Part shown: in pieces, positions 12,515-60,285 of the stretch
Position numbering within the stretch: position 1 is the stretch's first letter
Layout of the letters: every line of letters begins with the position of its first letter
DNA from: Octopus vulgaris
Lineage: Eukaryota
Reading direction: 5' to 3'
DNA: 64,000 nucleotides
Assembly: GCA_951406725.2 (NCBI GenBank)
Contig: OX597819.1
Location: 63,116,001 to 63,180,000 of the forward strand
Program-made: the position numbers and the translations under genes
The notes under the pieces: model-generated
Database searches by the model: none
The model's input: the letters and a program-made list of their open reading frames with translations, nothing else
What the model was told of the DNA's origin: nothing

Positions 12515-12571
12515 ATGTATTCTGAACATATCTACTAACCCCAAGATTCAGAGTTCGATTCCAGATAGTGA

Positions 12572-12637
<66 letters not shown>

Positions 12638-12810
12638 TAATAATGATGAGGATGATGATAACATCAAAAAATACCTTAGGAATGAGATCCCAGGTTCGAA
12701 ATTTCCCCAAGACATCTGATGAAGGCGGGAGGATATATCAGCCGAAACGGTGTATTAACAAAAAACAAGATGAGGACAAATATCCGTCAAATGTAAATAT
12801 CGTAAATGAT
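12515..12810 (+). mobile_element. Short element with two B-box-like motifs, internal (AAT)n and an HHR (mutated copy)
   Basis: GAGTTCGATTCC at 12551, GGTTCGAAATTT at 12693, CTGATGA at 12716, GCC GAAA at 12741-12747. The 3' part matches 49081-49220. Confidence 0.75.
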
Positions 12811-13189: not shown

Positions 13190-13865
13190 AGTGATTAAGA
13201 GAGAGAGCCTTGCAAATAGACTTAATAGATAGAAACTGAAAGAAACTCATTGTGTATATAAATCTTTAAAAATAAGGATAAAATCGATATTATCAAGTGG
13301 CCAGCATGGGAATAAATACCATACAAAGGTAATAATTTTTTCCAACTATAAATAAGGGTATCTGAGAGACATCACCATGCCGAAATAGCAGTCCAACCTT
13401 GACTCTAAAAACCTTCTAAAATGTTCATATCGCACCATGAGATAAGACAGATAGACAAAATAAACTAGCAAAAAGATATTACTGGATAATTCAAGCTAGA
13501 AATCCAGGATCTTGAATTATCCAGTAATATCTTTTTGCTACTTTATTTTGTCTCTGTCTTATCTGATGGTGCGATATGAACATTTTAGATGGTTTTTAGA
13601 GTCAGGGCTGGACTGCTATTTCGGCATGGTGGTGTCTCTCAGATACCCTTATATATGTATATATTGGGGCGGTGTTCGTCCCCCACCGCTAATAGCTGAT
13701 GTTGGTGCTTTTACGTCCTCGTAACTAAGCGGTCGGGCAAAAAGACCGATAACATAAGTACCAATTTAAAATAAATACAATATATACTGCCACCAGTTCA
13801 TTCGACTAAAAATTTCCCACGGCGGTGTAACCAGCATGGACGCATTTTAATGACTGAAACAAGTA
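13190..13865 (+). mobile_element. SINE family B copy split by a fold-back insertion
   Basis: End of head (AGAAACTGAAAGAAACTC) at ~13230-13250 and tail (AGCGGTCGGGCAAAAAGACCGAT...ATGACTGAAACAAGT) at 13670-13865, flanking the insertion. Confidence 0.6.
13262..13656. mobile_element. Fold-back element with HHR-like motif in each arm
   Basis: Arms 13347-13495/13511-13656, ~15-nt loop. CTGAGA GACAT-cacc-ATGCC GAAA TAGCA GTC at 13362-13393 lacks one core base. Confidence 0.7.
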
Positions 13866-20109: not shown

Positions 20110-20535
20110 CAATAATAAATCTCTGAGCGAGATATAAGCAGTAGCAGCACGACATGGTGAAGTATATTTGCTACCTAAATGTGGCTGATCCATAAGGGAT
20201 GATGCTACTGTTGTTCATAACTCCAGGAAGACATCTCCTCCAGCTGGCTAACGACATATTCTTTGTGCCCGATCAGTTTTTGCGAAAGGAAATCATCGTT
20301 CCTATCTCTAGCCTTACGTCATACACACGGACCCTGGTTTCTGAATAGTATCCCGTCATCAGCGTGTAACAATCAGGCTAGAGATAGGAACGATGATTTC
20401 CCTTCCCAAATACTGATCGGGCACTGACAGTGAGTCGTTAGCCAGCTGGAGGAGATGTCTTCCTGGGGCTATAAACAACCGTAGCATCGTCCCATATGGG
20501 TCAGCCATACTTAGGTGGCAAATATACTTCACAAT
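20110..20535 (-). mobile_element. Fold-back element with HHR in the loop
   Basis: Arms 20157-20314/20375-20532, 60-nt spacer. Confidence 0.85.
20325..20367 (-). ncRNA. Minimal type I hammerhead ribozyme
   Basis: ACACG CTGATGA cgggatactattca GAAA CCAGGG TC CGTGT: perfect 5-bp stem I, intact core, GUC triplet; stem II weak. Confidence 0.75.
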
Positions 20536-26512: not shown

Positions 26513-26662
26513 GGTGTGAGAGGACGGTTAAGCAATAGTTAATTTAGATAAGATTAATTTGTCACAATTAATCGGTTGCTATAATAAAACTCCGAGTATC
26601 GGATGTTGGGGCGGAAGCCCGCACCGGCATCTCTTCAGTTATCGAGGCAATCAAAATATCTG

Positions 26663-26723
26663 GATAACTGAAGAGATGCATGTGCGGGTTTCTGCCCCGA
26701 CATCCGAAACTCGGAGTTTTATT
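26663..26723 (+). ncRNA. Type I hammerhead ribozyme
   Basis: GATAA CTGAAGA GATG...CATC C GAAA CTCGGAG TT TTATT; intact core, GUU triplet. The mirror copy has GATA instead of GAAA. Confidence 0.65.
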
Positions 26724-26821
26724 ATGGCAACCGAATAATTGTCACATATTATATTACAGATAAATTCCTCTACTTATATAATATCGAGGTTTCTGTCATT
26801 ATTTTGTTGTCTTACCATTAG

Positions 26822-38217: not shown

Positions 38218-38375
38218 TTTATTTTGTTTGTTAGGAAATAAAAATTACGGCGTCACAGGGGGTCAAATTATTCTCAATGAGGAAATATATAATTTTCCAT
38301 TTAGAGATAGTAGGCCCCTTCATCACACCATATAAAATAATTTTAATTTAATTTAATACTTACCACATATATCTG

Positions 38376-38462
38376 GGCTACATGTGTTTCTTGCGGTTCC
38401 TTTTCCGGTTCCTTAACCACGCCGTATTTTGCAGGAACCGTTCTAACCCCAATCATCAGGCC
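38376..38462 (-). ncRNA. Type I hammerhead ribozyme with extended stem II
   Basis: GGC CTGATGA TTGGGGTT..CGGTTCCT-loop-AGGAACCG..AACCGCAA GAAA CACATG TA GCC; intact core, GUA triplet. Confidence 0.8.
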
Positions 38463-38543
38463 TCCACATCACTTTATCATACTTTGATACTAAAAACTAT
38501 ATTTTAATTTTAAACATATAAGTATACTTATAACACACACACA

Positions 38544-48669: not shown

Positions 48670-49074
48670 CTGTAAGCAAATTCTTAATGGTTTCTTGAAC
48701 GTTAGCGACAAACTGTCAACAATGTGATACATGAGAAATGTGTCATGTATTCATCATGCAAAATCTGATTGTCTGCTGATAGAATTAAAATTGAAAAACA
48801 AGAGACCACGTTCAGAATACTGAAGCGTAAAATTGCAATATGTTGGGAGATCATTGAACTCAGATGGGCAGATATCACTTACTAGCTTGGTATGACACAG
48901 CATTCACGTGATAATGAATCCAAAAATGGAATATTCCAAATGAGAATGAGTTACTGGTGTGAAGTATCTTGAAGATGAAGAGCATACAGATGGCATAAGA
49001 GAGAGTAAGTGTTTTTATTCAAGTGCATGATGAAAATGGTCTCTAAGTTTTCAAATCACAAAGGTGTATACATG

Positions 49075-49248
49075 AAAATCCAGGTTCGAAATTTCCCCAA
49101 AACACCTGATGAAGGCTGGTGGTGTTGGCGCCGGTGGTGGTGGTGGGGGTATCAGCCGAAACGTTGTGTTAACAACAAATAAGATAAGGACAAATATCCA
49201 TCGAATGTAAATACTGTACATAATTCCTCATCTCTTAAATATAGAACT
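49075..49248 (+). mobile_element. B-box + HHR element (second copy)
   Basis: CAGGTTCGAAATTTCCCCAA, HHR and tail all match 12690-12810. Confidence 0.8.
49101..49170 (+). ncRNA. Minimal type I hammerhead ribozyme
   Basis: AACAC CTGATGA A GGCTGGT-(GGT-rich loop)-ATCAGCC GAAA CG TT GTGTT: 5-bp stem I, 7-bp stem II, AACGTT palindrome, GUU triplet. Confidence 0.85.
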
Positions 49249-50169
49249 GCAGTGCTGTTGTTAAGGGGAAGAGATATTCAAAATATTGACATCAATTATT
49301 GATTGGTACTTTTGTGTTATCGACTCTGGATGAAGAGAAGGCAGATTTCAATTCTTAAGATTTCAAATCATAACTTAAATCGGTTTAGCTTCAGATAAAT
49401 GTGTCAGATCAATTGCCTTTCAGTATCCGAAATGCATACTACAAGACCATTGGTTCGAAATGTTTATCTGGAGCTATAACGATTCTGTCAACTTGCTTGA
49501 AATATAATATCCTGCATAAAAAGTGACAAAATTCTAATAGTTTAACTGTCGCACAAATATCATATGCTACATGACGCATTTTGCATTAATCTCCACACGA
49601 GTATAACATGTTTATTCTGTATCGCCACATTCATTAAATGGTTCAGTGATGGAACATCTAATGATGTAGCATGGAGTTTCAAAGTAACTACACCTTGTCT
49701 CTCACCTATCTGGCCGCTTCATTTCTCTAATAAAATTGCACTCAAAGCAGTAAAGATAATATTTCTTCTATTGATACAAGTGATTATATGACGCACCTCA
49801 CCCAATAAAAACCAGGTTTACTGTCACGCTGAGGACTCAGCTATTTAATTTAAAGTTTCCTGGGCGATTATAAAGCGACTATTGTTCCGTGAATCCATGA
49901 ATAGTAATGGAAAGAATCATTAACATATTTGACAGAAATATAATTCAATATAATTCTACCACTACGTGCTGTTTCCTTACATTTATGAACATAAATTTAT
50001 ATATATATACTAATATAGGCTGAAGTTTTTTTACAGAAAAAATTTCATCAAAAGGTGGCAGCATATTAAAATACCTTAAAAGTTTAAAATTATAAACAAC
50101 TTATAAACAAGGGCAAAAGAAAATTGGCACGGAAAAATTTTCTTTTACCATTGTTTATAAGTTATATAA

Positions 50170-59921: not shown

Positions 59922-60285
59922 GAGCACACACAAACTATCACAACGTCTAACAAGCCTGTTTTTATTCATATATAATTACAGATATATTTCACGCGATGGG
60001 CTTCAGTAAAGTTTCCGTCTAATTAATTTCGTGGCAAAGCGTGTGCTGAACCAAACAACAAAGCTTATACAAAAATCGTCTGGTCCTAATATGACACGGG
60101 CAGGAATCGAACACGATAATCGTCGTTGCGAAGAACATTTATGCATTCAGCCATAGAACCCCCCCCACACACACACACAAACACACACAAAGACGCGCGC
60201 ACACACACAAATACACAGACACACACATATTTTAATATATATATACATATATACATGTATATATATGTATATATGTATATACCTA

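Follow-up and report, generated by a model that had tools for sequence, protein, structure and literature searches.

The stretch at 49072-49249 of the window (by which we mean the whole 64,000-nt stretch of Octopus vulgaris DNA analysed, contig OX597819.1) is the broken-off end of a common coding retrotransposon of the Penelope/Poseidon type, with reverse transcriptase (RT) and GIY-YIG domain. In the full terminal repeat (pLTR) of this family a tRNA-derived head stands upstream. Judging from the sequences, we put at roughly 65% the probability that this Pol III-type head marks the start of the element's RNA, that the RNA runs on into the open reading frame (ORF), and that SINE-like copies follow from it. 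Pol III promoters are known in SINEs. A preliminary description had taken the stretch for a SINE with a Pol III-like promoter box fused to a hammerhead, perhaps parasitic on PLE machinery. Is it such a SINE, or a by-product of the element to which it belongs?

The window copies and the hammerhead

The window holds two copies of the family (Table 1), both solo, with no tandem hammerhead units of the kind that defines non-LTR retrozymes. The copy at 49072 extends to the long one of the family's 3' ends, and codon 37 of its frame is a stop (49180-82). Its hammerhead, described as the cleanest in the window, is plainly visible in the sequence: stem I comprises 5 bp (49101-05 with 49166-70), and the core CUGAUGA at 49106-12, with an extra A at 49113, is accompanied by GAAA at 49158-61 and GUU at 49163-65. 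The 7 bp claimed for stem II are reached when G-U pairs are counted (7-8); Watson-Crick pairs number only 5. Stem III is an ACGU palindrome with zero loop and so can form only in a dimer, a dimer-only form that PMC4209133 describes for PLE repeats. The reported expansion of the stem II loop with GGT repeats is likewise seen, as a 24-nt GGT-rich insertion. Because this insertion supplies a competing helix, the predicted fold of the copy is not a hammerhead (z -1.08); "cleanest" is thus true of the core letters but not of the fold. The family-majority hammerhead lies near the hammerhead fold (constrained -11.2 versus MFE -12.6), compared with -9.5 versus -27.4 for the window copy, a gap overstated by leaving loop II unfolded. 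Rfam scans of the window, the locus and a near-majority copy gave neither hammerhead nor tRNA matches. The core is intact in the window copy, and all core motifs are kept in 14 of 67 other family copies, a loss expected under neutral CpG decay. The lone window copy is likely inert.

Table 1. Features of the two family copies in the window.
Feature	Position	Strand	Remarks
5'-truncated pLTR, Penelope/Poseidon-type element	49072..49249	+	no head, no (AAT)n; corresponds to ORF residues 1-64
First in-frame ATG of the element ORF	49072..49074	+	window copy starts at this ATG
Sequence formerly proposed as B box, GGTTCGAAATTTCC	49083..49096	+	codons 4-9 (QVRNFP), protein code by the ORF majority
Minimal type I hammerhead within the reading frame	49101..49170	+	predicted cut after 49165; architecture as outlined in PMC4209133
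GGT-rich loop II expansion, +24 nt	49121..49150	+	copy-specific by alignment; absent from other family copies compared
3' half of tRNA-derived head	12532..12575	+	true B box 12553-12561; A box lost through 5' truncation
(AAT)n linker, second copy	12576..12662	+	
ATG, degenerate hammerhead and short-class 3' end, second copy	12682..12806	+	

The second copy announced near 12690 is present (12682-12810); in its hammerhead U16.1 is replaced by G, and stems I and II contain mismatches. Elsewhere in the window, another hammerhead-like core, unrelated to the PLE family, lies on the minus strand at 38330-38500, a B-box match falls inside a different tRNA-like head at 60104-60150 (minus strand), and long self-complementary stretches occupy 2597-2841, 13348-13656, 20154-20535 and 26555-26751.

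The proposed promoter box is coding sequence

The B-box consensus is GWTCRANNC. Tried as a B box, GGTTCGAAATTTCC does not match this pattern; the family's real B box, in the second copy, does. In 69 of 69 copies GGTTCGAAATTTCC has a T at the B box's invariant C; it is coding sequence and not a promoter box adjoining the hammerhead. GWTCRANNC strings alone mean little, since the window contains 14 where 22 are expected. The copy at 49072 is also without the tRNA-related head and its A and B boxes. Both findings that the preliminary description had itself named as fatal to a ribozyme SINE apply to this copy: it has no B box, and it is a piece of a longer PLE.

The parent element

The genome searched comprised 2.8 Gb in 227 contigs. 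The copy number, proposed earlier as a check, proved high: one 24-mer of the hammerhead region has 4043 exact matches, its reversed control none. The suspected tie to a PLE was borne out, as the hammerhead pLTR sits both before and after an ORF for RT and GIY-YIG. It directly precedes the ORF body, at varying lengths, in 30 loci chosen for that junction, and the head follows coding sequence with an RT domain in L026 and 40 further loci. Pfam placed RVT_1 above cut-off in the coding sequence adjoining the head and gave no GIY-YIG match; the C-terminal GIY-YIG-type domain was read from the translation and homologues. RT-bearing copies examined are mostly broken, with no intact active copy among them; L070 retains an open frame of 569 aa.

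A majority ORF built from 228 aligned pieces (mean identity 91%) has 837 codons, RT followed by the GIY-YIG-type domain, and its first ATG lies inside the pLTR. Numbered from there, GGTTCGAAATTTCC occupies nt 12-25, the hammerhead core begins at nt 35, with nt 70 as the last base of GUU. Met next occurs at 103, after a motif kept in homologues, and the majority ORF is 57% identical to P0003 over 823 aa, the hammerhead-coded peptide being common to both. When the genome was searched with P0029 for headless sisters of the family, the matches were mostly loci of the PLE family itself.

The full pLTR reads, in order, 74-nt tRNA-derived head, (AAT)n, ATG and hammerhead, with two alternative 3' ends; copy ends fall into two groups, 47 of 93 at ORF nt 120-129 and 37 at 150-169. 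As in Penelope/Poseidon elements, the pLTRs occur in partial tandems and with inverted 5'-truncated partners, and they carry a minimal hammerhead with an optional tail of 30-40 nt. From the domain order and the absence of a linker zinc finger in the translation, we infer membership of the Penelope/Poseidon clade.

Several loci show further peculiarities. On the minus strand of L032 (4427-5697), one head-bearing unit is followed by five headless units of 188-197 nt in retrozyme-like fashion; this is the one tandem array among 30 loci (matched three times), and hammerhead dimers could form in it. In L128 (1520-1545) and many other copies, duplication of a 9-nt unit at the first of the 3'-end sites is frequent and preserves the frame. 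In L005, L102, L103, L108 and L187 the 3' end of another retroelement abuts the (AAT)n linker upstream; that of L102 we take, from its translated C-terminal domain, to be Dong/R4-like.

A tRNA-derived head

Within the 74-nt head the A and B boxes are correctly spaced (regex control). It lies about 100 nt upstream of the position of GGTTCGAAATTTCC and is missing from the 49072 copy. The A box sought in the family consensus is therefore present, in this upstream head, and has been lost from both window copies; a Pol III promoter is tenable at family level through the head, and not through GGTTCGAAATTTCC.

The head is colinear, end to end, with host tRNA genes. Among 25 distinct tRNAs of six amino-acid types the best match is tRNA-Arg(TCG) (z 7.7), followed by Arg(TCT) (z 7.5) and Ala (z 7.2), scores too close to single out one source isotype. 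ARAGORN found no tRNA in the window or the head-bearing loci, and neither it nor Rfam called the head a tRNA; aligning with tRNAs yet unscored by these programs, the head is tRNA-derived rather than a tRNA gene. Among 31 downstream regions of related PLEs, none contained the A/B-box pattern. The OK, OR1 and OR2 SINEs are likewise tRNA-derived heads known from an octopus genome. Ohshima and Okada reportedly assigned these SINEs a tRNA-Arg origin in 1994. OR2 is also cited in the text of PMC4758252.

Copies stop at the head

Where do copies end on their 5' side? We sampled 92 head occurrences along contig C1 in order of position, 90 of them belonging to the first 100 in the list of matches; in 77 the hammerhead tail lies within the locus. 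The 5' end falls at -7 to +4 in 51 of them, inside the head in 31, in the 3' UTR beyond it in 9 and at -9 in 1, so that 51 of the 61 sampled copies reaching the head start stop there, spread across 11 nt and not at a single base. Automatic classes (32 head, 31 AAT and 30 tail of 93) misfiled several long-(AAT)n copies and were not used for counts. Exact 24-mer matches number 4071 for the head, 4043 for the hammerhead and 791 for the UTR just upstream.

Oligo(A) adjoins element sequence directly in 14 of 47 loci (31-position window, hand tally). G(-6) accounts for ten of these junctions; -5, -4, -1 and +4 account for the rest, and none is upstream of -6. In 4 of 16 loci inspected the A-run is preceded by sense ORF pieces, ending at unit nt 328 (L456), 301 (L462), 396 (L343) and 672 (L459); five of the 16 have the inverted arm. 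We interpret the junctions as places where a template whose 5' end lay at -6 was joined either to the A-tailed 3' end of an RNA or to untemplated bases. Sense ORF pieces before A-runs at -6 would then mean that head-started RNA reaches at least 670 nt into the unit, as deduced from DNA; the head is thus the likely starting point of the template RNA, which would continue into the ORF.

An ordinary PLE carrying a silent tRNA-SINE relic in its 3' UTR might imitate such a start, its RNA coming from Pol II or read-through and a hairpin at the boundary stalling RT or folding it back. The boundary hairpin exists (-9.1 kcal/mol, the second most stable 30-nt window of 512), and fold-backs at the head boundary occur in 14 of the 92 copies, so RT stalling is a real rival. 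D. virilis Penelope, moreover, has a LINE-like internal promoter according to PMC2377424. Against this, a stronger hairpin in the ORF causes no pile-up: 10 of the 36 RT-bearing copies examined extend that far, and 1 of these stops there. The oligo(A) junctions at -6, too, lie on the far side of the inner stem, which would not be RT's first contact. The ORF-hairpin test and the junctions favour an RNA end at the head, and we regard the relic explanation as unlikely.

By-products or an independent SINE

The preliminary model, an independent ribozyme SINE parasitising the PLE, would have its own master copies. Short head-started copies do exceed UTR-linked ones about 5:1 and, equipped as they are with promoter boxes and RT start sites, could include sources; the head followed by five headless tandem units in L032 is compatible with it. 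The same head, however, stands in ORF-linked pLTRs, and three non-CpG variants are equally common among ORF-linked copies (66) and short ones (116; p 1, 1 and 0.24; samples from different searches). Divergence is also similar in the two classes, 5-7%; CpG differences between them (p 0.003 and 0.005) were set aside as sampling bias. With the proposed box being coding sequence as well, we consider this model improbable. Of the hallmarks of a tRNA-derived SINE, the family has the head with A and B boxes and no separate non-coding lineage. If RT starts internally near the pLTR end, the upstream repeat of a head-started transcript gives short copies, and a separate SINE is unneeded. The SINE-like copies are thus likely by-products without a lineage of their own; short copies could act as minor sources.

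Which polymerase?

The putative start at -6 lies 13 nt before the A box, the distance expected for a tRNA-type promoter. The 2587-nt majority unit contains no TTTT (T4), where 4.5 would be expected from base shuffling (P 0.009) or 2.9 from synonymous shuffling (P 0.026). Among related ORFs of at least 400 aa from 80 loci, 1 of 41 is T4-free, as is 1 of 12 T-poor ones. This single T4-free relative, L345, is the closest metagenome relative; its ORF exceeds 2 kb, it is headless and its 3' UTR has T-runs. T4 can therefore be absent without Pol III, and the argument loses force accordingly.

Three RNA-seq runs and one contig set were mapped to L148. Reads cover both strands equally, at a depth that follows copy number (up to about 15-fold on the ORF body), and they revealed neither a discrete RNA start nor a cut site; this lack of stranded signal would also suit a silent relic. 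Raw reads on L148 contain no splice joint, so a Penelope-type intron is unsupported.

We consider Pol III transcription of the element likely from its sequence, and are less sure that Pol III makes the coding RNA. The labour may instead be split, with short oligoadenylated Pol III RNAs from the head yielding the SINE-like copies while Pol II or read-through transcription supplies the protein and the long copies. This possibility, a serious contender that overlaps our preferred explanation and fits most data, accords with A-tailed sense pieces ending only at nt 301-672 and with Kojima's argument that such elements cannot grow beyond about 1.3 kb because of limited Pol III processivity (PMC10886601). 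The T4-free state of the entire unit speaks against it, as does L128, in which a head-started repeat is followed by the ORF body.

Discussion

Under the preferred reading, transcription would start at the -6 base and continue into the ORF. The element's RT would begin at an internal site, roughly 125 or 155 nt past the start of the ORF, in the manner reported for PAc in vitro (PMC11167929), and at the upstream repeat it would run off the RNA 5' end after about 300 nt, producing thousands of SINE-like copies; earlier drop-off would leave headless copies such as that at 49072. Cleavage by the hammerhead is predicted 70 nt past the ATG and would require a dimer or the assistance of a protein. A bolder version, which we hold tentatively and rather doubt, has Pol III transcribe the whole mRNA of about 2.9 kb from the captured tRNA promoter; this mRNA would be translated cap-free from its (AAU/AAC)n leader and would yield thousands of SINE-like copies by internal RT starts. 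Such RNA being uncapped, its translation would need to be cap-independent.

Among the closest counterparts is PAc of Anolis. As described in PMC11167929, it shares RT with a C-terminal GIY-YIG-type domain, partial tandems, an ORF start overlapping the hammerhead with the cut site downstream of the ATG, two 3' ends that define the tail, and two matching internal RT start sites. The octopus element differs from that description in the tRNA-derived A/B-box head and (AAT)n leader of its pLTR and in its ATG, 34 nt before the core and not at stem II. Its ribozyme departs in nothing from the minimal hammerheads of metazoan pLTRs as PMC4209133 portrays them: short stem I, an extra base between 9 and 10.1, G10.1-C11.1, a zero-loop palindromic stem III, and mostly solo truncated copies. 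In schistosome SM-alpha a Pol III-type promoter likewise stands upstream of a hammerhead, but as presented in PMC6765202 that is a non-coding tandem repeat with a canonical hammerhead and no ORF linkage. The TRIMp3 elements Cassandra, Helenus and Ajax also have a small-RNA-derived Pol III promoter in the terminal repeat, probably from SINE insertion; according to the account in PMC10886601 they are non-coding LTR elements of 311-1263 bp, whereas the octopus repeat belongs to a coding PLE.

Hammerhead-bearing pLTRs as such are already known (PMC4209133; PMC8557442; bioRxiv 10.64898/2026.07.22.740005), and an octopus repeat annotation, as described in PMC13282606, lists Penelope families without hammerheads. 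Our literature searches turned up no coding PLE equipped with a tRNA head; the family may be listed in Repbase, Dfam, SINEBase or supplements, among them the repeat library of PMC13282606. Non-coding TRIMs are already known to have Pol III heads in their terminal repeats, and PMC10886601 argues that their coding partners need Pol II.

Should only the silent relic be real, the stretch would be an ordinary PLE end. Under our preferred reading, in which the RNA of a coding PLE begins at a tRNA head, the element would form an exception to the Pol II requirement that can be put to the test, and would illustrate one route by which SINE-like families arise; oligo(A) junctions offer a genomic means of mapping PLE RNA ends. 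If the bolder version were true, an autonomous coding retrotransposon would unite the equivalent of a LINE and its SINE in one transcript.
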